DNA of 64,000 bases, taken from assembly GCA_037308085.1 (NCBI GenBank), contig CP147779.1, forward strand, positions 1,184,001 to 1,248,000, written 5' to 3'. The notes under the pieces were generated by a model. It made no database searches. It was not told the origin of the DNA and saw only the letters and a list, made by a program, of their open reading frames with translations. The position numbers and the translations under genes are program-made. Every line of letters starts with the position of its first letter. The first letter of the stretch is position 1. Shown one piece after another: positions 18,610 to 60,822 of this stretch. Source of the DNA: Promethearchaeati archaeon SRVP18_Atabeyarchaeia-1 (GTDB lineage Archaea > Asgardarchaeota > Atabeyarchaeia > Atabeyarchaeales > Atabeyarchaeaceae).

Positions 18610-20022
18610 ATGTATGAAGATTTAGCAAATTTCGCACTAGACTTTGCTCAGAAGAAGGCCGGGGTCACTTATGCTGAGGTGAAGGTTGAGAGATCAGTAG
18701 GCAACGCCGTTGTCATCAAGAATGCCATGATAGATGCACTAGTCTATGCCGAAGATGAGGGACTATGCACTAGAGTAGTCACCAAGGAAGGAATTGGGTT
18801 CGCATCCACCAATATCCTCGGCAACAGTGAAGCAAAGGCTGTAGTCGACCAGGCATACAAGACTGCGCGTTCATCACGTAGGAAAACACCCATAACCTTC
18901 GCAGAGGAGAAGGGTGTCGAGGAGAAATGGACCATTGTAGAAAAAGAAAAGTTAGCGGATGTCACGCCTGAGCAACTTGTAAGCGCCGCGATGGAAACAG
19001 ACAAGTACCTAGATTCACTCGACTTGAAGTTGCCTGCAAGGATCATTCAGCTCTCGGACGACATCGCCGAGAAGTACTTCTGCAACACTGAGGGATCGAG
19101 AATATCATCAATTATACCTAGGATTGACGCTATTGCCCATATAAATGTCGAAGAAGATGGGCAAGTCGAAATGGCTTACAGAACCTATGGTTATACAGGT
19201 GGATGGGAAGGGTTAAAGAAGATCCAAATAGGCGAAACAATGGGCAACGACGCAAAGGTGCTCGCAAAGCTGATCACTGAGGGAAAGAAGCTTCCCGAAG
19301 GAGACATGGATCTGATATGTGGACCGGAAGTCACCGCTATAGCGTCGCATGAATCCTGCGGTCACCCGATGGAGGCTGACAGAATAAACGGAAGGGAAAT
19401 GAGCCAAGCAGGAAAATCCTTCGTGTCAAAAGAATTGTTGGGGCAAAGGATTGGCTCAGATGCGGTAACTATTATTGACGACCCAACAATACCTAACAGT
19501 GCAGGGTTCTACGTCTATGACGAGGAAGGCGTCAAAGCCAGACCGAGGTACCTCTACAAAAAAGGACTGATAAACGAGTTTCTGCACAACCGAGAGAGCG
19601 CTGCAATAATGGGCGGCAAGAGTAATGCTTCTTCCAGGTCAGTTAGCTACGATCGGGAAGCCATAGTGAGAATGGCCAACACTTACCTTGCCCCAGGAGA
19701 CTACACGGACGAGGAGCTTCTCGAGGATGTCAAGAAAGGCGTATGGATGGAGTCCTTCAACGAGTGGAACATTGACGATAGGAGATTTAATCAGAAGTAC
19801 ACTGGACGTGAAGCCTACCTCATCGAGAATGGGGAACGAAAACACCCTGTCAAGAACTGCGTCATTGAAACTACGACCCGCAAGTTCTGGAGCGCAGTCG
19901 ACGCCGTGTCAAAACGGCTTCAATTTGTCGCAGCGACGTGTGGGAAAGGTGACCCTGAACAAGGCATTCCAGTTCTAACAGGTGGAGCCACAGCCAGACT
20001 ACGGGAGGTGTACCTGAAGTGA
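18610..20022 (+). CDS. tldD: TldD family metalloprotease
   Basis: HESCGH, YDEEG, RMANT, CGKG. Confidence 0.93.
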   Translation: MYEDLANFALDFAQKKAGVTYAEVKVERSVGNAVVIKNAMIDALVYAEDEGLCTRVVTKEGIGFASTNILGNSEAKAVVDQAYKTARSSRRKTPITFAEEKGVEEKWTIVEKEKLADVTPEQLVSAAMETDKYLDSLDLKLPARIIQLSDDIAEKYFCNTEGSRISSIIPRIDAIAHINVEEDGQVEMAYRTYGYTGGWEGLKKIQIGETMGNDAKVLAKLITEGKKLPEGDMDLICGPEVTAIASHESCGHPMEADRINGREMSQAGKSFVSKELLGQRIGSDAVTIIDDPTIPNSAGFYVYDEEGVKARPRYLYKKGLINEFLHNRESAAIMGGKSNASSRSVSYDREAIVRMANTYLAPGDYTDEELLEDVKKGVWMESFNEWNIDDRRFNQKYTGREAYLIENGERKHPVKNCVIETTTRKFWSAVDAVSKRLQFVAATCGKGDPEQGIPVLTGGATARLREVYLK

Positions 20023-21359
20023 CGAAGCTAATGACTGAAGAGATAATGGAGAAGACTGAGCAGGTAGTTAGGAAGGCTAGGGGCCTTGGCGCAGCCGAAG
20101 TCGTAGCTGAAGGTGTGGTCTCACAGGATAGGCAAGTGAGATTCAGCAACAACCAGATAGACATATCCCAGAACTGGCGGGAATCCGCTATCGATGTGGT
20201 TCTCACGGTTGGCAAGAAAGTTGTTGCTACCAAGATCAACAAGCTAGATAAACTGGACTTCATGGTTGAGAAGCTGGTGTCCATAGCCAAGGCGTCAAAG
20301 GATAACCCTCTCTGGGGCGGGGTCGCGAAGGGCAAATTCAAGTACGAGAGCTCAAAGATGGACAATTCGATTAGGAAGCTAGATGAGCCCTCGAAGTATG
20401 TTTGGAAGGCGATCGACGCTGCTTTCTCAGAGGGAGCCAAGAACACTGGAGGTCTCCTATTTGTGGGTGACGAGGACTCGTACTTGGTTTCATCTGAAGG
20501 TCCGAGTGGCCTTGACAGCCAGACTTACATCGACCTCAGCATCAGAGCTTTCTCGGATGAAGAGAATTCTGGGCATGGTGTCGAATGCTCGAATAGTCTT
20601 GCAGACTTCCATCCTGAGAAAGCGGGCAAAAAGGCTGGGGAGATCGCAAGCGAATCGAAGAAGTATCCCAGAGAGAACGTTGAAGAAGGTAGCTATGACG
20701 TTGTTCTTGAACCGCTTTTCTTCGGCGCGGTAATGTCCACGATGGGAGCTATGGCATCAGCGTTCTATGCTCTTGCGGGTCAGTCACCTTTCGTGGGCAA
20801 GGTAGGGCAAAAAGTCGCTTCGGGAATTGTGACAATGCGTGACTACGCTTCTGCCACCTCAATGTTCCATAGAACCTTTGATGCAGAAGGTGTACCTATC
20901 AAGGATACTAAAATCATAGACCACGGGGTATTCAAAACCTTTCTGCACAACACTTCAACTGCAAAGCTCTTCAAGACAGAGACAACAGGAAACGCCGGCA
21001 TTGTCATCCCACAAGCGTTTACAACCCAGATGGATCCAGGCGACTACGAGCTACAGGAGATCTTCTCACAGGTCAAGAGTGGATTGTACTTGACAAACAC
21101 ATGGTACACGCGCTTCCAGAACTACACGACTGGAGACTTCTCGACAGTTCCGCGTGACGGAGCCTTCGTAGTGAAGGACGGCGAGATCAAGGCATCGACC
21201 GCCAACCTCAGAGTATCAGAAAACCTTTTGAGACTCCTCCAGAACATCGAAGGGATAAGTAGGGAGAGACACCAGGTGCGCTGGTGGGGAGAAGTCAGCG
21301 AACCAGCATTCGCGCCGCATGTACTAGCTCGGAACGTCAAGATAACTAAGGCGAAGTAG
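20019..21359 (+). CDS. pmbA: TldE/PmbA family protein
   Basis: FDAEG, TTGNAG, GDFS; no HExxH; overlaps the tldD stop. Confidence 0.9.
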   Translation: MTKLMTEEIMEKTEQVVRKARGLGAAEVVAEGVVSQDRQVRFSNNQIDISQNWRESAIDVVLTVGKKVVATKINKLDKLDFMVEKLVSIAKASKDNPLWGGVAKGKFKYESSKMDNSIRKLDEPSKYVWKAIDAAFSEGAKNTGGLLFVGDEDSYLVSSEGPSGLDSQTYIDLSIRAFSDEENSGHGVECSNSLADFHPEKAGKKAGEIASESKKYPRENVEEGSYDVVLEPLFFGAVMSTMGAMASAFYALAGQSPFVGKVGQKVASGIVTMRDYASATSMFHRTFDAEGVPIKDTKIIDHGVFKTFLHNTSTAKLFKTETTGNAGIVIPQAFTTQMDPGDYELQEIFSQVKSGLYLTNTWYTRFQNYTTGDFSTVPRDGAFVVKDGEIKASTANLRVSENLLRLLQNIEGISRERHQVRWWGEVSEPAFAPHVLARNVKITKAK

Positions 21360-21392
21360 GAAGCAAGCAGTTGACGTCCTGCGCTCGTTTCT

Positions 21393-22040
21393 CTACTTCC
21401 CAGATATTTTTTCGGGAGACAATAGATCTGGAATGTTTGTTACGATGGCGTCTACTCCGAGTCTGATCAGTCTCTCAGCAACGCGGCGATTGTTCACTGT
21501 CCAAGCGAAGATGGCGAGATTGTGCTCGTGGAGTTCTTTGACCATCTCCTTGGTGACTAACTCATACTGAGGTACCATGCAACTGGCTTTCAGTTCCAAC
21601 GCTTTCACGGCAATGTCACGGATTTTCTAGGAGAATATCTGACCTGTCGGTATCTGCTGGTTCAGTTCCTTTACCTTCCTGATCGCGTCAGCCATGAATG
21701 AAGTCACAACCACATTCTTCACAGCGTCTTCTGACTCCAGCAGGTCAACCAGCAACTTCTCTGTTCCCACGCCTTTCACCCCAATAACGACTCCTACCTT
21801 GTTCTCAGATAACTTGAGGGCTTCTTGAAGCGTGGGTATCTTCTCACCTTTTCCCGCATCGAGTCTCCTGATCTCTTCAAGGGTCATTTCCCTGACTGCT
21901 CCTTCTCCATTTGTGGTGCGGTTAACCGTATCGTCGTGTATCACCACTAGCTGTGCGTCTCTCGTGGAGTGAACGTCCACTTCAACCATGTCAGCGCCAA
22001 GCTCAATTGCCGTTTCTAAAACCTTGAGCAATTTTATTGG
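21393..22040 (-). pseudogene. Glycerophosphodiester phosphodiesterase pseudogene
   Basis: AIELGADMVEVDVH, VVIHD, IPTL, AWTVN, GVDAIVTN motifs; in-frame TAG at 21627-21629; N-terminal HRG motif missing; expected IEVK appears as IGVK. Confidence 0.85.
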
Positions 22041-22327
22041 TTTTATTCGGAGCGTCGGCCTCCTCCGTCCCACCTGCTCCGGCGGCACCAGGCCTACCGC
22101 CGGCGTGCAGGTACTCATGCTTCATCGAAGGCCAAGAGGCGTCCGCACTCACGGTAAACGGGTAGCCGCAGAGGCGCGGCCCACGAGAGAAGATGGCCAA
22201 CGAGGCCAGCCTGTTCCTATCGTAAGCAGCGCCGCAGGCGACCGGGCTCATGAAGAATGACGGAACGCGCTACTTCCAAACAAGAATTGGCCCAAGCATG
22301 CTTCTCTCTCGGTTTCCCCGTGGTTGC

Positions 22328-23734
22328 CTATGTCTGAATAGTCACATCTTGGATCCTGATCGGCGGCGATACTACGCACGATGGATAGAGCATTGGCGTA
22401 CACTTCTCTGGCTTGTCTCCAATGGCATCTATCTTCTTCGCATAGTCAAAGATGTTCCCAGCTATCCTGACATCACTTGCCGGCGTGGTCAATTCGCCAT
22501 TCTCGATTCTGAGCCCATTCAACACAGTGACCGAGAAGGAACCGTCTGGTCTTGCAGTGAAGGCAGGGTCAGACCTCTCGATATATATGCCGTCCCTGAC
22601 TTCGCTGATCATGCTATTCAGGGACATGGCTCCCGGCTTGAAAACAAGGTTGGTCGGATAGATTCTCGGGAGTCGTCTGAAACTTCTATAGTAGAAATAG
22701 TCTACACTCGGCATCTCCCATCTGACACAGTTGCCAGTGCTCTGAACAGATGCTATTCTTGCGCTTTGGCTATTGTGGAGGTAGCCTTTCAGAATGCCGT
22801 TCTCGACGAGGACCGTTCTCTTGGAGGGCATACCTTCGTCGTCCATCTTGAATGATGCAAGGCCTCCTTCGTAGGTTCCGTCGTCAACTAGGGTGAGGAT
22901 ATCAGATCCGATCTGCTTGCCTATTTTTCCCTCCAATGGAGAAGCCTTGTCCCTAACGTTATCGGCCAGAAAGGCGTTCGCAAACGCGTACGTGAAAAGC
23001 TCAGCCACGGCGTGTGGGCTTAGGACCACCGGCATCTTCTTGGGCTCAATCGTCCGGGCTCCACGATATTTCAGTATCTTACCAGAATAGTTAGATGCAA
23101 AGTTGCTAACATTGTCAGTACCTTTGACTGTCCTCTCGACATTATAGACCTCGATCTTGCTTTCTCTGTCTTCATACTTCGCAGATATTCCCAAAGCCAT
23201 TCTTACAAAGCTGCCATAGTCATCAACCATCAGCCCTTCGGTATTGACGACTGCGAATCCATGCCTAGATCGCCCGAAAAGAGAGTCGTAGACTGTTATT
23301 CTCTGAGGATCGACTTCCTTTGCAGCTTTCCTGAGAGTTACTAACTGGGACATTGCTTCTTCTGGTCCCATCTCAGCAGCATGCTTGTCGTAGATGCCAG
23401 AAACGCGCGGGTAACCGCTCGGTTTTGCTGGGAAGCTCTCAAGTCCAGGTTGAGGCTCAGCTACCTTCAACGCGCTACGAACTGATGACTTTATTGATTC
23501 ATCTTCGAGGTTGCTGAGATACGCGAATCCGAGGGAACCACCCTTTATCACGCGGATACCTGCCCCAGCGAGGGTTTGATCCCTTGTCGTAAGATTCTCC
23601 TTACCGCTGACTCTGGATATCCTCATAACAAGATTCTCTCTTGACTCAAGGAAGACTTCTACTCGCTCTGCGCCTTCCCCTTGAGCCATCTTGACGATTC
23701 TTTCGGCTGTGTGAGGCAAATCCATTGAGGACAA
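22328..23734 (-). CDS. pmbA: TldE/PmbA family protein
   Basis: GIRV..GG.LGF, DDEG, LVENGIL, STGN, IENGE. Confidence 0.9.
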   Translation of the reverse strand: MSSMDLPHTAERIVKMAQGEGAERVEVFLESRENLVMRISRVSGKENLTTRDQTLAGAGIRVIKGGSLGFAYLSNLEDESIKSSVRSALKVAEPQPGLESFPAKPSGYPRVSGIYDKHAAEMGPEEAMSQLVTLRKAAKEVDPQRITVYDSLFGRSRHGFAVVNTEGLMVDDYGSFVRMALGISAKYEDRESKIEVYNVERTVKGTDNVSNFASNYSGKILKYRGARTIEPKKMPVVLSPHAVAELFTYAFANAFLADNVRDKASPLEGKIGKQIGSDILTLVDDGTYEGGLASFKMDDEGMPSKRTVLVENGILKGYLHNSQSARIASVQSTGNCVRWEMPSVDYFYYRSFRRLPRIYPTNLVFKPGAMSLNSMISEVRDGIYIERSDPAFTARPDGSFSVTVLNGLRIENGELTTPASDVRIAGNIFDYAKKIDAIGDKPEKCTPMLYPSCVVSPPIRIQDVTIQT

Positions 23735-23781
23735 GGTCTAGGTTCCACTCCTTGCTATCAACTCATTGACAATTCAGCATT

Positions 23782-25203
23782 CTATCCTATTCTCAGCTCA
23801 CTGAATCTCAGGTGCGGGCCAGCCCCTGAGGTAACCATCGACTCCTCTTCTTCCGTCAACCTTATCTGAAGAACTTCAAAGTCACTCCCAACGCCATCAA
23901 TGTTCTTCAATTCATTGACAATGTCAAGGGTGAAGCTCGGCGACAAGACAGCTCTTCCAAGCTTTCCGTTCTTTATCAAATAACCCCTCTCCGCATTGCC
24001 ACTCATAATGCGCGTTGTGCTGGCGCCCGTGAGCCCCGTCAGATAGATACCATCCTTTATTCCTTCAACCATCTCCTCAAACTTCAGGTCGCCAGACTTC
24101 ACTATCGTGTTAGACACGTATGGGCGGGGCGCGAAGAGGGCATTCTGGCATCTTGCATGTCCTTCAACGACAGTATTGAACAGGTATGCAGTGGTCTTGC
24201 TGTGCAAATATGATTTCAACACGCCATTCTCAATCAGCGTCGTGGGTCTTGCTAAGACACCTTCCTCATCATACTTATAGAAAACTGGAAGCCCAGGAGA
24301 AGTTGGATCATCATAAAGAACGAACGACTCGGGCGCTAGTTGCTCACCTAGTCTGCCCGCAAACCCGCCAAGCTCACCTTCAGGTATCAGGGCATTATGA
24401 GCACAACCCATCAACCCCGTGCTTGACGCCAAGAGTCCAGTCAACCTAGGATCGAGGATAGCTGGAAGCTTCCCTGAGGGAGGCTCCTCTGCTGACAGAA
24501 GCTCAACGGCATCCTTGGCGACCTGTTGGGCCGAACTCAGCGGATCAGCCATGGCCATTAGTTCCTGCCCGGCGCTGGCACCGATTCTTCCTATGCACCT
24601 CGAGATTCTGGCGCCCTCGCGGGCGGTGACTATCGTGCGCAGTTCGGTGTACGGGTGCGATTCCTGTATCTTCGAGCCGTCTGAGTTGACGAAGAACCTC
24701 TCATAGACTTCGTCGATGTATCTAAAATTAGTTCCGACGATCCTTTCGTCGGTTGAGCGTGCCGCAGCATCACAGGATAGAATTATCTCCTTCTTCTCGT
24801 CGATGGGAACTTCCCTTGGGTCAGTCACATCCCCCAACTTCACGTCATCTTCGACTTGAGGCGCAGAGGCTAGTCCAACTTTCTCCTTGAAGTTCACGCT
24901 TGCTGCTTCAGCTATCTTCGTTGCCCTCTCGGCGGCTTGACCTATCGCCTCTTTGTCCTGTCGTGTAAAAATCGACAAGCCAATGGTTCCCTTGAGCACT
25001 CTTACGCTGCCAGCAAGTTCAATTGATGGAATTATCCGCTCAACTTTCCCATTAGTCACGACTATCATGTTGCTATAAATCCTCTGGAGTCTAATGTCTG
25101 CGTGCTCCACCTTATGCTTCGATACGAGTTTGCTAAGTGCAGCCTCGAGAATATCTATCACCGGACAATACCCCCCCGTTTCAGGCACGTCGCGTATGAC
25201 CAA
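23782..25203 (-). CDS. TldD-like protein lacking the HExxGH metal site
   Basis: ADIR, DDPT, YDEEG, GHAR, SNT motifs present; LLASSTG where HExxGH is expected; no C-terminal CGK. Confidence 0.85.
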   Translation of the reverse strand: MVIRDVPETGGYCPVIDILEAALSKLVSKHKVEHADIRLQRIYSNMIVVTNGKVERIIPSIELAGSVRVLKGTIGLSIFTRQDKEAIGQAAERATKIAEAASVNFKEKVGLASAPQVEDDVKLGDVTDPREVPIDEKKEIILSCDAAARSTDERIVGTNFRYIDEVYERFFVNSDGSKIQESHPYTELRTIVTAREGARISRCIGRIGASAGQELMAMADPLSSAQQVAKDAVELLSAEEPPSGKLPAILDPRLTGLLASSTGLMGCAHNALIPEGELGGFAGRLGEQLAPESFVLYDDPTSPGLPVFYKYDEEGVLARPTTLIENGVLKSYLHSKTTAYLFNTVVEGHARCQNALFAPRPYVSNTIVKSGDLKFEEMVEGIKDGIYLTGLTGASTTRIMSGNAERGYLIKNGKLGRAVLSPSFTLDIVNELKNIDGVGSDFEVLQIRLTEEEESMVTSGAGPHLRFSELRIG

Positions 25204-30778: not shown

Positions 30779-33208
30779 ATGGCACAAGAAAAGCGACCAG
30801 AAGTTATGCAAGATCACGACCCAGTTAGAATTGGAGTATATGTTTGTCACTGTGGATTGAATATTGCTGGCTCTGTCGATTGCGCAGAAGTCGCAAAGTT
30901 TGCTGCAAGCCTTCCCAATGTTGTTCTTGCAAAAGATAACCGATATACGTGCTCAGACCAAGGGCAAGAGATAATCAAGAAGGATATCAAGGAACAGAAT
31001 CTCAATCGCGTCGTGGTAGCGTCTTGCTCGCCTCGCCTCCATGAACCGACATTCAGAAAGACATGTGAAGACGCCGGACTGAACAAGTACCTTTTCGAAA
31101 TGGCCAACATACGTGAACAATGTAGCTGGGTTCACCTCTATGACAAGAAAGGAGGAACCGAAAAGGCGAAGGATCTCGTGAGAATGGCTGTAGCCAAAGT
31201 CGCCTTGCTTCAACCGGCGCAAGAAGTCGAAGTCCCGATTACTCGTAAAGCGCTCATAATAGGAGCTGGCGTGGCCGGCATTCAGGCCGCCTTGGATCTC
31301 GCTGAAACAGGATACAAAGTCTACGTCGTGGAAAAGGAGCCAAGTATAGGGGGCATGATGGCCAGAATTGACAAGACTTTTCCGACGATGGACTGCTCGA
31401 TCTGCATACTTGCCCCGAAAATGTCCGATGCTGGACATCATCCAAACATAGAACTGATGACTAACAGCGAAGTTGCCGACGTTAAGGGATACATCGGCAA
31501 CTTCCAAGTGAAAGTGACGAAAAAACCCCGTTTCGTCAAGAAGGACTGCTCAGCATGTGGCGAATGCGCGAAGGTCTGCCCGATAGTTATGCCCAATGAA
31601 TTTGATGTGGGCCTAGCCACAAGGCATGGGATCTACACGCCATTTGCGCAAGCAGTGCCATCAACCTACATAGTAGATATGAGCCACTGTCTAAACAAAG
31701 ATGGTGTAATAGTCTGCGACAAGTGCGTCAAAGCCTGCGAAAGGCAGGCCATAGACTTTGACATGAAGACCGAGAATGTTGACCTCAACATAGGAACGAT
31801 AATTGTAGCGACTGGTGCTGATGTATTCGACCCATCGATACTGCCAAACTATGGGTACGGCAAATATCCAAATGTAATCACATCCTTGGAGTTTGAAAGA
31901 CTTATCAATGCAGGAGGGCCATCTGGTGGGCGGTTGCTGAGACCCAGTGATCTAGAGATTCCTAAGTGCGTGGCGTTCGTCCAGTGTGTCGGCTCGCGAT
32001 CCAACAAGACCGGAAAGCAGTACTGCAGTAATGTCTGTTGCATGAACACGATAAAGGACGCTCTGTTGATTAAGGAGCATTGGCCAGAAACTGAGATCAG
32101 CGTTTTCTACATTGACATTAGAGCTTACGGAAAGGGTTTCGAGGACCTCTACACACGAGCCAAGAAAGAAGGTGTCAAATTCATACGTGGACTTCCGGCA
32201 GAAATCTTAGAGGACAAAACAAGCCACAACATCCAGCTCGTTGGCGAGAACACTCTACTGAAGGAATTATACAGAATGGACGCTGACATGGCGATTCTGT
32301 CAATAGGTCTGGAATCGCGAAAAGACAGTGAAACAATTCAACGGCTACTGACAATTTCCAGAGATCAAGACGGGTTCTTCCTTGAAGCACACCCAAAACT
32401 CAGGCCAGTAGACGCTGCCACCGGAGGAATATTCTTTGCGGGCTGTGCTGAGGCTCCCAAGGACATCAAGGACAGCGTGACCCAAGCCAGTGCAGCCGCA
32501 GCTCGGGCAGGGATCTTGATGGCAAAGGGAAAAGTGACTGTCGAAGCCATTACGCCAATCTACGATGCCGAAAAATGTAAGGCATGTGGACTCTGCGTGA
32601 AAGTATGCCCATATAATGCAATCACATTAGACAAAGAAAGAAAAGTCATCAACATCGTGGAGGCTGCCTGTGGCGGATGCGGAACCTGTGCGGCTGAATG
32701 CGCATTTGGCGCTCTTACACAGAGCCACTTCACAGACGAACAGATCTCGGCACAGATTGATGCCGCAACAGAGGAAGCGCCAGAAAAGAAAGCAGTCGCA
32801 TTTTGCTGCAACTGGTGTTCATACGCAGGTGCAGACTTTGCCGGTGTGAGCAGAATGCAGTATCCACCAGACGTACGAATAATCCGGACCATGTGTTCGG
32901 GGCGCGTGGCTCAGAAATTCGTTGAAAGAGCTTTCGCTAGAGGCGCCGCAACTGTGCTAGTAGCTGGCTGCCATCTTGGAGATTGCCACTACATTAATGC
33001 CAATTACCAGACACAGAAACGCGTAGAACGTTTATGGAAAAAGATGGAGCAGAGCGGGCTAGACAGGGAAAGGCTTCAGCTGCTGTGGGCTTCTGCTGCA
33101 GAAGGCGAGAGATTCGCCAACAAGATTCGTGAATTGCACTCGATAATCGAGAAGGTGAAGCCTGAGGACATTGAGAAGTCTAGAAAGACTTTCGCAAAAA
33201 GTCTGTAG
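30779..33208 (+). CDS. hdrA: Heterodisulfide reductase subunit A fused to MvhD
   Basis: IGVYVCHCG, CSPRLHE, KTFPTMDC, QCVGSR, YCSNVCC; C-terminal FCCNWCSY...RTMCSGR...GCHLGDCHY. Confidence 0.95.
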   Translation: MAQEKRPEVMQDHDPVRIGVYVCHCGLNIAGSVDCAEVAKFAASLPNVVLAKDNRYTCSDQGQEIIKKDIKEQNLNRVVVASCSPRLHEPTFRKTCEDAGLNKYLFEMANIREQCSWVHLYDKKGGTEKAKDLVRMAVAKVALLQPAQEVEVPITRKALIIGAGVAGIQAALDLAETGYKVYVVEKEPSIGGMMARIDKTFPTMDCSICILAPKMSDAGHHPNIELMTNSEVADVKGYIGNFQVKVTKKPRFVKKDCSACGECAKVCPIVMPNEFDVGLATRHGIYTPFAQAVPSTYIVDMSHCLNKDGVIVCDKCVKACERQAIDFDMKTENVDLNIGTIIVATGADVFDPSILPNYGYGKYPNVITSLEFERLINAGGPSGGRLLRPSDLEIPKCVAFVQCVGSRSNKTGKQYCSNVCCMNTIKDALLIKEHWPETEISVFYIDIRAYGKGFEDLYTRAKKEGVKFIRGLPAEILEDKTSHNIQLVGENTLLKELYRMDADMAILSIGLESRKDSETIQRLLTISRDQDGFFLEAHPKLRPVDAATGGIFFAGCAEAPKDIKDSVTQASAAAARAGILMAKGKVTVEAITPIYDAEKCKACGLCVKVCPYNAITLDKERKVINIVEAACGGCGTCAAECAFGALTQSHFTDEQISAQIDAATEEAPEKKAVAFCCNWCSYAGADFAGVSRMQYPPDVRIIRTMCSGRVAQKFVERAFARGAATVLVAGCHLGDCHYINANYQTQKRVERLWKKMEQSGLDRERLQLLWASAAEGERFANKIRELHSIIEKVKPEDIEKSRKTFAKSL

Positions 33209-33221
33209 GTGAAAATAAGCG

Positions 33222-33500
33222 ATGCCTGAAAGAATTAGACATGCCCCCCTAGACGCCAAGAGCGTAAAATCACCGAAAGGCGAGATACACCTAATCAAGG
33301 ACCAATGTAAGGGTTGTAGCTATTGCATTGAATTCTGTCCAAAAAAGGTACTAGAAGAATCACAGGAAATAAACGCCCGTGGTGTTCATCCGCCTAGAGT
33401 AGCTGACGAAAGCAAGTGCGTCGTCTGCAATTTCTGCACATCTGTCTGTCCGGACTTTGCGATTTACGTTCTCGAGAAACCATGCAAGGAAGGTTGCTAA
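33222..33500 (+). CDS. korD: 2-oxoacid:ferredoxin oxidoreductase delta (ferredoxin) subunit
   Basis: CKGCSYCIEFCP and CVVCNFCTSVCPDFAI; operon position. Confidence 0.88.
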   Translation: MPERIRHAPLDAKSVKSPKGEIHLIKDQCKGCSYCIEFCPKKVLEESQEINARGVHPPRVADESKCVVCNFCTSVCPDFAIYVLEKPCKEGC

Positions 33501-56334: not shown

Positions 56335-57768
56335 TCACGCAGATATTTTGACGTTTGAGAACCTGATGGATGGCGTGATTGTGACTCTGTGCCTGAGCTC
56401 ATCTTCGTAGGTTCTGACGTCGTTACCTACTTCATTTACGTTCCTCAGAAGCTGCACTATGTCTGACCCTATCATGGCTTCCTTCACGGGGTATTTTATC
56501 TCTCCGCCCTCGATTTTGAACGCTGTTTGGACTCCAATTGAAAAGGCCCCTGACACTTGATTGGAAGTGTGAGCACCTATTACGGTGTATGCGAGTACTC
56601 CGTCTTCAACTTCTGATATTAGCTTCTCAAGGTCCTTAGTTCCGGGTCTAACTACGATGTTGCTTGTCTCTATTATTGGTTCAGAACTATAGGTTCTGAG
56701 TCCCGTGACATCCTTTCTTGTTGAGTTACCTGTGCTTTTGGTGTTAGCTTGATTGGCCCAAAGTGAATCATAGAGGAAAGAATTGATGACTCCCTTCTCG
56801 ATTAGGCGTGTGTTCTTTCTTGGGTTGCCTTCATCGTCGAATGACTGCGAAGCGAATCCCTTCTCAATTACGCCGTTATCCTCAATCGAGATGAGATCAG
56901 ATAGAATCTTCTTCCCCAACTTACCCGCAAAGGGGGTTTTGTTCCGTTGAAGGTTGTCTCCCATAAACGCTGGATGTATAGTGTGTGCGAAGAGATCACC
57001 CACGGCATATGAGTGCAGCACTAGATCCATGCTTCTGGTCTCGATAGGTTTCCTCGCGAGCTGGTCCACACACAGCTTTGAGACCGTCTTACCCAGCTGC
57101 TCCACATCGACGTCACTTGAGTTCCTTGCAAGTTGCAGGTAGTCTACACCTGAGACATCCCCATCGCCCTTAGCCATAGATGAAACTCGAGCGTCGACGA
57201 GCGTCTCAGTCTCCTCAAGGTCTACACCAGCGCTATTTGCTATTGCCCTATTGTATGTAATGTACGTGATTGTGCCACTGCCCGATTCTACGCGTTTATC
57301 GTAGTTTCTCATTGCTTCGGCAAGGGTTCTTCCCTTGTCGATCAGCTCCTCTATTTGGGCGTTCCTAACCTGTTTGTCAGAGATTCCCCTGACCTTCTGG
57401 TACGTGCCCTTTGCTGGAAATGCCTTGAACCTTGGATCCTCTTCCCTTGCCCGAGCGGTTCTCAGAGCTTTCTCTATGGTTTCATTCATCGGTTTTTCAG
57501 ATAGGTTTGAAGTGCAGGAGAACCCTAGTTTCTTGCCCATTGCTACGCGAATACCCAAGCCTGACTGGACTTTGCGCTGGGCGAATGTGACTTGAAGTCT
57601 CTCAATGAAACATGCGGATATGACCCTTCGGAGTGCAAAGGCCTCAGCTTGCGTAGCTCCAGTCTTCTCAGCTCGAGCCACTGCCTTGGACGCGGTTGGA
57701 GCCAAGCCGAGGTAACTGTTAAGCTTGCTCTGCTCTCCGGGACCAGTTCTAGCTTTGATGTTCGCCAT
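56335..57768 (-). CDS. pmbA: TldE/PmbA family protein
   Basis: GLGIRV, FDDEG, STGN, GAHT.N..SG.FS, IEGGE. Confidence 0.92.
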   Translation of the reverse strand: MANIKARTGPGEQSKLNSYLGLAPTASKAVARAEKTGATQAEAFALRRVISACFIERLQVTFAQRKVQSGLGIRVAMGKKLGFSCTSNLSEKPMNETIEKALRTARAREEDPRFKAFPAKGTYQKVRGISDKQVRNAQIEELIDKGRTLAEAMRNYDKRVESGSGTITYITYNRAIANSAGVDLEETETLVDARVSSMAKGDGDVSGVDYLQLARNSSDVDVEQLGKTVSKLCVDQLARKPIETRSMDLVLHSYAVGDLFAHTIHPAFMGDNLQRNKTPFAGKLGKKILSDLISIEDNGVIEKGFASQSFDDEGNPRKNTRLIEKGVINSFLYDSLWANQANTKSTGNSTRKDVTGLRTYSSEPIIETSNIVVRPGTKDLEKLISEVEDGVLAYTVIGAHTSNQVSGAFSIGVQTAFKIEGGEIKYPVKEAMIGSDIVQLLRNVNEVGNDVRTYEDELRHRVTITPSIRFSNVKISA

Positions 57769-57774
57769 TCTGGT

Positions 57775-57849
57775 TCAACCTCCACCAACCACCACATTCT
57801 TCACTCTAACACTGGTGCTCCCATTTCCCAGGGGCAGACTACCCTATTC
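57775..57849 (-). pseudogene. Displaced tldD 3' fragment (E*GSLPLGNGSTSVRVKNVVVGGG*)
   Basis: 14 of 24 codons give the same residue as the last 24 codons of tldD (59466-59395); stop lies 6 nt before the pmbA ATG. Confidence 0.85.
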
Positions 57850-59466
57850 ACGACTCGTCATTCATTTCTCATCAATGTTTAGCCAAGACTAGACTATATG
57901 TTTATCGCGATAGTTTCAGAGTGCGTGGAAAGTTGACTTAAATGGTTCTGAGCCTGAAGTCACTGGTTTTCTGCAGTATGTGAGACTGCACATGCATCAC
58001 GAGACCCTCATGGATTCCGTCTGATCTTGGTCTACTTACGGCACCCCAATGGCAAGCGGGAAGCTTAGCGAGGAATACGGCATAGACAAGAGAACTCTTC
58101 GCCGCGGGCTAGTAAAACTGATTGGCGAGAGAGAATACAAAGGGATCATGGATCGAAATGTGAAACAGAGGAAGAAACAGGTTCCGCTAGAGTGGGCACT
58201 CAGAAGACTAAGGAACGCGGAGTTGTTAACTAAACTCAGTAACGAATATGGAGTAAGCAGGAAGACTCTGCGATCCGCCTTCCGGTTGCTGATCGGTGAA
58301 GGAGAATACAGCGCGATAATAGACAGAAAGGCTAGGAAGCAGGTTCCAATCAAAAAGGTGTTAAGGCGATTCAAGAGCGGAGAGACATTGAAGAGTCTTT
58401 GTATGGAATATCATGTCACGTGGGAAACCCTGAGGAACATTCTCACGAAGGCAATTGGTGAAGAAGAGTACCGGAAATTAGTTCCAATGCACAGGGGAGG
58501 AAGAGCGCGGAGACAACTTCCAGTTCAGGAAGTTTTGACGAGAGTCAAAGCCGGTCAGTCACTAGGAAGACTTGCCAAAGCTTACAATGTAAGCTGGCTG
58601 ACTTTGAAGCGTAGGCTGGTAGAACTAGTTGGCAAAGACGGATATAAGTCGGCTAGAAAACGAACAACGCGAATCCGAGTGAAACCTCGAAGGGCCACAG
58701 TGGGATACGGCTCTCCTCTTGCAAAGGAAAATGGGGCTGACAGCCTTATTGAACTCAAGGTCAGAATGCTCCTACAGAATAACAGGGTTTCCTTCGGATA
58801 TCGGGAAAGCCTAGTTGTCAGGGGACACTGCTATGAACCAGACTTCATGTTCGGTGATAGGACCATCGTTGAGGTCATGGGAGTCACGAATACTGAGTAT
58901 TGGACGCGGTGCCACAAGAAACTGTAAGATTACGTCGGAAGTGCCTATAGAGTCATTGCAGTGATACCAGACTACTTAATCGACATAAGAAGCAAGTATA
59001 TTCCAAAAGGAGTCAGCATGATCAGGTACAACGACTTCACGAATAACATCGAAAGATACATAAAACAATTAGTGAACAAAACTAATATCGACAACTCAGC
59101 CATTCACTGATGAACTGCCACTCACGCGTGGTGATTTCAAGCATCATCGACAGTATTGCTGCAGGGGCTGGAAAAGATCCCATATTCTTCTTCCGTTAGA
59201 TCTCGACCCAGCTTGTCAAACCCTTTCCGACGTCGGATTTTGATTGGGGGAATCATACTGATGGGAGATTAGTCGGAGTTCCAGATGGGGCCCATAATAT
59301 ACCCCCTTGCCGAAGTAGAGCCTTGGTACTACCCTGCCTGTTTCAAGGAAATCGGTTGGAGGTTTCTCGCATGTTTCCAGTCTGGCGACCACTACTGCCC
59401 GCCGACAACAACATTTCGGATTCTTGTGCTACTCCCTCCATTACCCACGGGCAAATTGCTCTGTTC
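57850..59466. mobile_element. Endonuclease cassette at the tldD 3' end, carrying a replacement C-terminus (boundaries approximate)
   Basis: Splits the tldD-pmbA operon; tldD 3' end present on both sides. Confidence 0.7.
58049..59110 (+). pseudogene. Tandem-HTH-repeat + PD-(D/E)xK (Vsr/DUF559-like) endonuclease with an in-frame TAA
   Basis: Four ~54-aa repeats (L..EYGVS..TL...L..LIGE.EY), then S.IE...YEPDF...IVEV.G...YW; TAA at 58925-58927, frame stays open 60 more codons to TGA at 59110. Confidence 0.78.
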
Positions 59467-60822
59467 ATTCTTACCACAGAATCCTATGCCAGCCACCGAG
59501 AAGTCTTTTCCGACTGCATCGATATTCTGAAGTGTCTCCAGAGTTAGTCCGCTCAATGAGACGTCGAGGAGCGGTTTCGTGACTTGACCCTTTTCGATCA
59601 AGAAGGCTTCCTGGGCTGAGAACTGGAACGATCCTATCGCGATGTTAACTTGGCCTCCTCTGGTTCCTTTCACATAAATGCCGTTTCTGATATCCTCAAT
59701 TAGTTCATCAAATGAGTAGTCTCCAGGGGCGATGTACGTGTTGGACATGCGAGGGATCGGACGGAAGTGGTATCCTTGGGCTCTGGCTCCCCCGTTTGGT
59801 GCGAGATTTAGCTTAGCCGCGGCTTCCCTGTTCAAGATGTATTCTCGAAGTACGCCTTTCTCGATTATCGTTCTTTTCTTCGCTAGTGTTCCCTCAGAAT
59901 CATATTTGAAAGACCCGAAGCCATCAGGGACGCTTGGATCATCGTAGACTGTCGCCACTTCTGAACCGACCTTCTGTCCAAGCTTCCCAGTCAGTACACT
60001 CTCCCCAGAGATTACAAAGTCAGCTTCAGCGGCATGTCCAAGCGCTTCATGGACGAAGACGCCTATGTGCTCGGGATCTGCAACCACGGTAAATCGGCCA
60101 CCTGTTGCTTGCTCAGCTTTCAACAAAGCCGAAGCTTTGTTGGCAGTCTCCTTAGCGGTCGAGTCAAGGTCCTTCTCAAGAAACTTCTCAAATCCTCCCA
60201 TAGCACCGATCCTCTTCCGGTACTGACGGATCTTGTCCCCCTCCTTAGCGACTGGAACGAAGACGAGTGATCCCCTTGAAGGCTCACCTGTGATCTTCGA
60301 GCCTTCGCTATTGAGAAAAATGGTTTTCCCATAAGAATCGCCGTAGGTGACGGAGGCGCTAGCTATACTTGGGTTCTCTCGGATCACACGTGAGAGCTTC
60401 AGCGCTAGACCAAGCTTCTCATCGATCGGGACATTGGCGAAAGGCGTCTTCGCCTTGGCAATAAGTGAGTCCTCAATCTTCCTCAATCGGGCTATCTTGA
60501 CCTTCTCCTTGAGGTGCTCACTCGTCGCCTTAGCCATCTTGAAAGCGGCTTCGACGCCCCCCATGATCTCTTCGCGCGATATATCAGATGATGCAGCAAA
60601 ACCCCAGGCGCCATTAGCGAGCACTCGAATTCCGATTCCCTCACTGTAACTTGAAGTTGCCTGGTCAATCGTTTTGTCCCCCACGACTATCGATGTCGCG
60701 CTCATCATCTCGATCCTCATATCTGTGTACTCGGATCCAAGCTTGTCGGAATAATCAAGAGCCTTCTCAGAGATATCAAGAACATCCAATACCTGTAGAA
60801 CCTCCGAAAACAAGTCACTCAA
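59392..60822 (-). CDS. tldD: TldD family metalloprotease
   Basis: GIGIRVL, HEALGH, YDSEG, PRMSNT, GGQV, CGK. Confidence 0.95.
   Translation of the reverse strand: MSDLFSEVLQVLDVLDISEKALDYSDKLGSEYTDMRIEMMSATSIVVGDKTIDQATSSYSEGIGIRVLANGAWGFAASSDISREEIMGGVEAAFKMAKATSEHLKEKVKIARLRKIEDSLIAKAKTPFANVPIDEKLGLALKLSRVIRENPSIASASVTYGDSYGKTIFLNSEGSKITGEPSRGSLVFVPVAKEGDKIRQYRKRIGAMGGFEKFLEKDLDSTAKETANKASALLKAEQATGGRFTVVADPEHIGVFVHEALGHAAEADFVISGESVLTGKLGQKVGSEVATVYDDPSVPDGFGSFKYDSEGTLAKKRTIIEKGVLREYILNREAAAKLNLAPNGGARAQGYHFRPIPRMSNTYIAPGDYSFDELIEDIRNGIYVKGTRGGQVNIAIGSFQFSAQEAFLIEKGQVTKPLLDVSLSGLTLETLQNIDAVGKDFSVAGIGFCGKNEQSNLPVGNGGSSTRIRNVVVGGQ

Follow-up and report, generated by a model that had tools for sequence, protein, structure and literature searches.

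In the DNA analyzed here (the window, 64,000 nt of contig CP147779.1 from Promethearchaeati archaeon SRVP18_Atabeyarchaeia-1; window coordinates are used throughout), the genes tldD and pmbA lie on the minus strand, separated by a 1.54-kb insert. We propose, with moderate confidence, that this arrangement is best explained by a homing-type cassette inside the 3' end of tldD. The in-use end of the gene came with the insert, and the inherited end lies untranslated, directly upstream of pmbA. The genome, a single 2.81-Mb contig, is called G000 below, and ~13 related loci compared with it carry L-numbers. tldD (59392–60822, 476 aa) encodes a TldD metalloprotease whose vertically inherited body (59467–60822) contains the Pfam domains PmbA_TldD_1st, 2nd and 3rd (E 1e-67). 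All three domains are also found in the product of pmbA (56335–57768; E 3e-66; orthologues P0034–P0047), the non-catalytic TldD partner. The HExxxH signature is present as HEALGH in the tldD translation and absent from that of pmbA, and the genes are direct neighbors in seven native loci, as expected of a TldD/PmbA protease pair.

The tldD tail in use consists of 24 codons and TAG (59392–59466), and a second tail of 24 codons and TGA, which we call the orphan, occupies 57775–57849 on the same strand. The two align without gaps over their whole length, with 14/24 residues identical (5 through the same codon and 9 through different codons) and 44/75 nt identical. The similarity is beyond chance: the orphan was recovered when the 280 nt preceding pmbA were searched with the tldD tail (tblastn, E 1.7e-9), and also by a TldD protein profile (E 5.6e-7) and a DNA profile built from the 3' ends of six native tldD genes (E 8.8e-7). 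The second codon of the orphan is an in-frame TAG (57844–57846); the orphan ends in TGA (57775–57777) and is followed by a 6-nt spacer (57769–57774, minus strand) and the pmbA ATG at 57768; the Shine-Dalgarno sequence of pmbA, GGAGGT, lies within it (57778–57783). One contig of run X4 is short of one base within the orphan (57831), probably an assembly error, since the same run also has single-base indels within tldD. A preliminary description of this DNA had given both peptides at these positions with the same alignment, and had taken the GGAGGT and the 6-nt distance as remains of the ancestral operon junction. The positions and peptides were recovered as described, and the ancestral junction was borne out by the equal spacing in the seven native loci. 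Its statement that the old tldD C-terminus is fused to the start of pmbA holds only in part, as the two are adjacent but not fused.

The simple native junction, in which the tldD stop is followed by 6 nt and the pmbA start, is present in L016 of Candidatus Atabeyarchaeum deiterrae Atabeyarchaeia-2 (G002, same family as G000) and in L196, L107, L108, L194, L200 and L203. None of the ~13 related loci contains two tandem tldD genes, the arrangement that by the preliminary description would have made the fragment a simple deletion remnant. An orphan 6 nt before pmbA was found in four further loci (G001, L195, L198 and L202). These four orphans and that of G000 match the DNA profile of native 3' ends only from profile positions 223–234 of 300. 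This indicates one common breakpoint at –78 to –67, counted back from the tldD end, and upstream of it the profile found no match in any of the five loci. A frameshift-tolerant protein-to-DNA alignment compared with shuffled sequences likewise detected no more tldD remnant upstream of the orphans (p ~0.13–0.3). G001 has a weak AIGKTF-like stretch upstream of its orphan; the tldD body and the nuclease gene were not found in this fragmented assembly. In L201 (7947–8000) a replacement tail is followed by 51 nt and then pmbA. These 51 nt consist of left-junction-like sequence and ~20 nt of orphan end, a scar from which nearly the whole cassette has been deleted. A common insertion site (five orphans) and presence or absence in close relatives (three sister pairs) are as expected of a free-standing homing endonuclease cassette. 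Degenerate copies, expected from a cycle of invasion, decay and loss, are found as well: the nuclease gene carries an in-frame TAA in G000 and is absent from L198, and L201 is the scar.

Which of the two tails is native was read from close relatives. The pmbA tree contains three sister pairs with 100/100 support (G000/L194, L198/L203 and L201/L200), each joining a native locus to one with a cassette or scar. Identical nt per 75-nt window over the last four windows of tldD (–300 to –226, –225 to –151, –150 to –76 and the last 75 nt) were 59, 59, 65 and 44 for G000/L194; 66, 68, 60 and 43 for L198/L203; and 65, 67, 60 and 44 for L201/L200. L214 compared with native L200 is 89% identical in the gene body and 47/75 in the tail, so that in four close native versus cassette or scar pairs tldD is ~80–90% identical along the gene and 43–47/75 in its last 75 nt. 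The tail is not simply hypervariable, because the native close pair L107/L108 retains 73/75. Between the cassette loci L046 and L198 the relation is reversed, with 64/75 in the tail (third positions 83%) and 77% in the body (third positions 52%). The last 27 nt of the G000 orphan, including TGA, match the native tail of L194, the closest relative of G000, at 25/27, compared to 13/27 for the tail in use.

A first tree of 75-nt tails, with four roughly equidistant lineages, was uninformative, and became informative once closer relatives had been added via pmbA. In the tree built from 72-nt tails, those in use at five cassette and scar loci (G000, L201, L046, L198 and L214) form one cluster (ultrafast bootstrap (UFboot) 79, approximate likelihood ratio test (aLRT) 91, 78% of bootstrap trees, 0/500 label shuffles as low), which was already present in the tree with four in-use tails. 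The replacement tails cluster although their hosts fall in separate supported clades of the pmbA tree, so that their history departs from that of the hosts. Together, the pair identities, the tail cluster and the orphan–L194 match argue that the orphan is the inherited end and that the in-use end came with the insert, as the preliminary description had suggested from the two copies; by these comparisons the replacement tails have a common origin and travel with the insert. The genome holds eight TldD/PmbA pairs, two further pairs being inside the window at 18619–25161 (G000 1202619–1209161). The proline of a GGP motif (59425–59433) is conserved in native tails and in the TldD paralogues of the genome; among the replacement tails, L214 keeps it, and the other four (G000, L046, L198 and L201) have S, A or G in its place.

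The two equal-length, gap-free copies in direct orientation, 1.6 kb apart, could also have arisen by a local tandem duplication of the tldD 3' end followed by divergence, with an unrelated gene landing between the copies. However, the in-use tail groups with those of other cassette lineages rather than with the orphan at the same locus (44/75) or sister L194, and both the left and the right ends of the cassette recur in distant lineages. We therefore find a tandem duplication hardly plausible.

The right-end block next to the orphan (57850–57950, minus strand) can be aligned among G000, G001, L195, L198 and L202 and has a conserved TATA-like core. In G000 the box is ATTTAAG at 57937–57943, ~170 nt upstream of the pmbA ATG, and from its sequence the block is a candidate promoter that may now drive pmbA. 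The 34 nt adjoining the orphan are identical at 23/34 between G000 and G001, a value reached by none of 70,455 other 34-mer pairs. At the left end, the sequence after the tldD stop is 75% identical over 65 nt between L198 and L046. In G000 the corresponding spacer (59342–59391, minus strand, directly 3' of the stop) aligns to L046 without gaps (~28/50, ~56% over the first 50 nt). The content between these conserved ends differs. G000 has a nuclease gene and L046 a nuclease gene plus further genes, the cargo of L198 (6430–8000) includes a KaiC/RecA-like ATPase gene (PF06745), and in L195 (2–685) a methyltransferase gene adjoins the right end. The sole gene common to cassettes encodes a predicted PD-(D/E)XK nuclease. 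In the lineage resembling G001, an IS200/IS605-type TnpB gene is located just upstream of tldD (L046:4059–5186; L187 (G001:C210):3152–4279), and another lies between ATP-grasp and metallo-beta-lactamase genes at L200:10893–12161.

The nuclease pseudogene of G000 (58049–59110) is on the plus strand, convergent with tldD, and comprises tandem helix-turn-helix (HTH) repeats (~58049–58690) and a PD-(D/E)XK domain (~58691–59110). Its open reading frame (ORF), 58049–58927, ends at a TAA (58925–58927), and the frame runs on to a stop at 59108–59110. Read through the one stop, the product is 56% identical over 356 aa to the intact 483-aa homologue P0002. Contigs from a second study cover the TAA site with no difference listed. 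The G000 copy begins mid-repeat, without the N-terminal repeats of P0002, and may for this reason be shortened at its 5' end; it is probably a decaying relic. The repeats, which match Pfam HTH families, are ~57 aa long and spaced at 171 and 162 nt, and across the family the array has 2–7 tandem units. Intact nuclease genes, convergent with tldD and 42–55 nt from the replacement tail, are present in L046 and L214, so that with the G000 relic the nuclease gene adjoins a replacement tail in three independent assemblies.

The C-terminal domain has invariant S, E, PD, E, G and K residues. Of the catalytic D...(D/E)xK motif, the PD and E are conserved without exception, but the residue two positions beyond the E is not a K; an invariant K is located on the next helix instead. 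A structural model of the domain (P0002:300–483; predicted local distance difference test (pLDDT) 80, >90 over residues 21–140) shows the alpha-beta-beta-beta-alpha-beta core of the PD-(D/E)XK superfamily. Foldseek matched it to T7 endonuclease I, Bax1, PspGI, Vsr and I-Bth0305I, and the best VIA match was the catalytic domain of the homing endonuclease I-Bth0305I (Z 9.5, root-mean-square deviation 2.7, 94/97 residues). Pfam, NCBIfam and PDB sequence searches gave no family match for the domain, with only HTH and a marginal T7 endonuclease I hit; PHROGs returned 'endonuclease' (E 3e-4), and PADLOC nothing meaningful. From the fold, the invariant E, PD, E and K residues and the HTH array, the insert gene is predicted to encode a site-specific DNA endonuclease. 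The model also resembles XisH-family proteins, fdxN element excision factors (Z ~8). The preliminary description of the operon as split by a nuclease insert stands as far as the fold is concerned, but the gene here is a decaying relic and the same ends elsewhere enclose different cargo.

The nuclease family is rare (30 clusters among 1.84 billion representatives) and concentrated in Atabeyarchaeia, with several copies per genome including relics. Other G000 copies are outside the window, at G000:C1:101549–103315, 992639–993682, 33136–33414 and 450069–450374; one of them lies in convergent orientation to the elongation factor 2 gene, and another is a relic interrupted by two stops. A search beside two of these G000 paralogues turned up no duplicated gene tails.

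Integrative elements of the integrase type insert in the 3' ends of genes, tRNA genes for example, restore the end and displace the original. An element of this kind, with the replacement end in its attachment site, would account for a replacement 3' end on one side of the cassette and a displaced original on the other. Against this, Pfam found no integrase or transposase domain in the insert ORFs, the two tails share no in-register identical direct repeat, and there are no notable terminal inverted repeats. Neither a recombinase gene nor an identical attachment (att) core was found in the G000 insert, the cassettes of other lineages being only partly recovered, and the one gene that cassettes share is the nuclease. 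We regard an integrase-type element as very improbable.

The differences between orphans bear on when the tails were displaced. Host genes are saturated at synonymous sites (pS 0.73–0.78), so any stretch without a coding function since the split of the lineages should by now be randomized. At codon positions 1/2/3 the orphans instead differ by 5/4/17 (G000–G001), 5/2/14 (G001–L195) and 5/6/19 (G001–L198). This third-position bias (p 0.002–0.004), with native tails differing in a like manner, indicates that the tails diverged mostly while still coding and that their displacement came later, in separate events, which fits repeated invasion of one site.

Several observations weigh against the homing proposal. 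The replacement tails are 45–64/75 identical to each other, about as diverged as their hosts; for the right-end blocks, too, divergence is close to that of the hosts, with a similarity slightly above that of pmbA third positions; and the nuclease genes of G000 and L046 share 57% identity, their synonymous divergence (pS 0.65) being only slightly below the host level. With tails, right-end blocks and nuclease genes so diverged, the cassette lineage must be old. The same divergences favor a single ancient insertion, in an ancestor shared by the G000 and G001 clades, and vertical descent from then on. The native loci would then go back to precise loss, with the replacement tail recombining with the orphan, or to native alleles brought in by ordinary homologous recombination, and the nuclease would be a passenger or long dead. 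Under such a history an intact tail of the native type must have been regained on three or more separate occasions (L194, L200 and L203), yet orphans visibly decay, with stops in G000, L198 and L202. The coding-like bias between orphans is also unexpected for DNA non-coding since that ancestor. We consider a single ancient insertion unlikely, though a serious contender.

Other points also count against the homing proposal. The left boundary of the replaced segment varies, from ~–57 in L198 to ~–70 or more in L046, and the nuclease gene is missing from some cassette or scar loci (L198, L201). With tails of only 72 nt, support for the tail cluster is moderate. Not every metagenome contig can be assigned to a genome of its own, which makes the number of independent events uncertain. 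Contigs of four runs contained no joint across the insert, and hence no cassette-free form in this population.

In the homing mechanism we favor, the cassette would consist of the recoded last 75 nt of tldD, a short spacer, the antisense nuclease gene, variable cargo and the promoter-like right-end block, inserted at ~–75 to –78 of tldD. Near –75, the nuclease would cut alleles that lack the cassette, and repair with a cassette-carrying allele as template would copy the cassette in, with the tldD body as left homology arm and the tail plus pmbA as right arm. Because the tail and pmbA would serve as the right arm, the recipient's own tail would survive as the orphan. tldD would then finish in the cassette's own tail, which keeps the gene intact and may protect the invaded allele from being cut again, and the resident tail would be stranded untranslated before pmbA, still supplying its ribosome-binding site. 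Transcription of pmbA would start from the TATA-like block, and the orphan would serve as its leader. The G000 cassette would be in a stage of decay, with a nonsense codon in its nuclease gene, and the 5' part of that gene and any cargo may have been lost. Going further, we tentatively suggest, at somewhat less than even confidence, an as yet undescribed archaeal family of free-standing homing endonucleases in which a variable array of ~57-aa HTH modules is fused to an I-Bth0305I-like PD-(D/E)XK domain. The family would still be cycling through Atabeyarchaeia chromosomes, homing into the last 75 nt of tldD and carrying a recoded end, by which tldD survives, together with a promoter that rewires pmbA. 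The modular HTH array might read a long target repeat by repeat.

If correct, the homing proposal gives an example of a selfish element inserting into an operon that looks essential and leaving both genes alive. The native, invaded, decayed and scar loci make up what we call a dated series of states, in which the homing cycle can be studied in archaea not yet cultured. Attention is also drawn to a rare family of nucleases that have a modular DNA-binding array and, by prediction, target the –75 region of native tldD. The main text of the Atabeyarchaeia mobile-element paper does not mention tldD. Literature searches returned nothing specific on archaeal free-standing homing endonucleases and no report of free-standing homing cassettes in Asgard archaeal chromosomes.

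Like I-Bth0305I (PDB 3r3p), the insert protein has a separate N-terminal DNA-binding region followed by a small PD-(D/E)XK/Vsr-like catalytic domain. It differs in that sequence identity is 16%, with no sequence-level family match, and in that its DNA-binding part is an HTH array. The I-Bth0305I gene also sits inside an intron or intein, whereas the insert nuclease gene is free-standing. The seg and mob genes of T4-like phages encode free-standing homing endonucleases that undergo intronless homing with co-conversion of flanking sequence. They resemble the cassette in standing alone between conserved genes, in their patchy occurrence, in the transfer of flanks and in the decay of copies. However, they are intergenic or split genes, leave no duplicated gene end and belong to phage genomes, not cellular chromosomes.

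In architecture the locus parallels the mobile endonuclease ORFs (mORFs) of fungal mitochondria, which carry a foreign gene C-terminus, as in atp6 of Allomyces macrogynus and atp6, atp9, cox2 and nad3 of Glomus (PMC3630166). In both systems an endonuclease gene lies near the 3' end of a host gene that is completed by an inserted C-terminal copy, the displaced native C-terminus is found downstream and is closest to the native ends of relatives, and the two C-terminal copies are low in nucleotide identity and similar in protein (PMC3630166). The tldD locus shares with mORFs the in-frame inserted copy and the downstream displacement of the native end. It departs from them in its nuclease, which is a PD-(D/E)XK enzyme with an HTH array encoded on the opposite strand and out of phase, in place of a LAGLIDADG or GIY-YIG ORF on the host strand that is often in phase with the host gene. 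The host is an archaeal chromosome and not an organelle, and the tldD insertion interrupts an operon of two genes and seems to provide the second of them with a promoter. If our proposal is right, the fungal-mitochondrial mechanism, in which an endonuclease cassette carries a substitute gene end, would extend to the cellular chromosomes of Asgard archaea.
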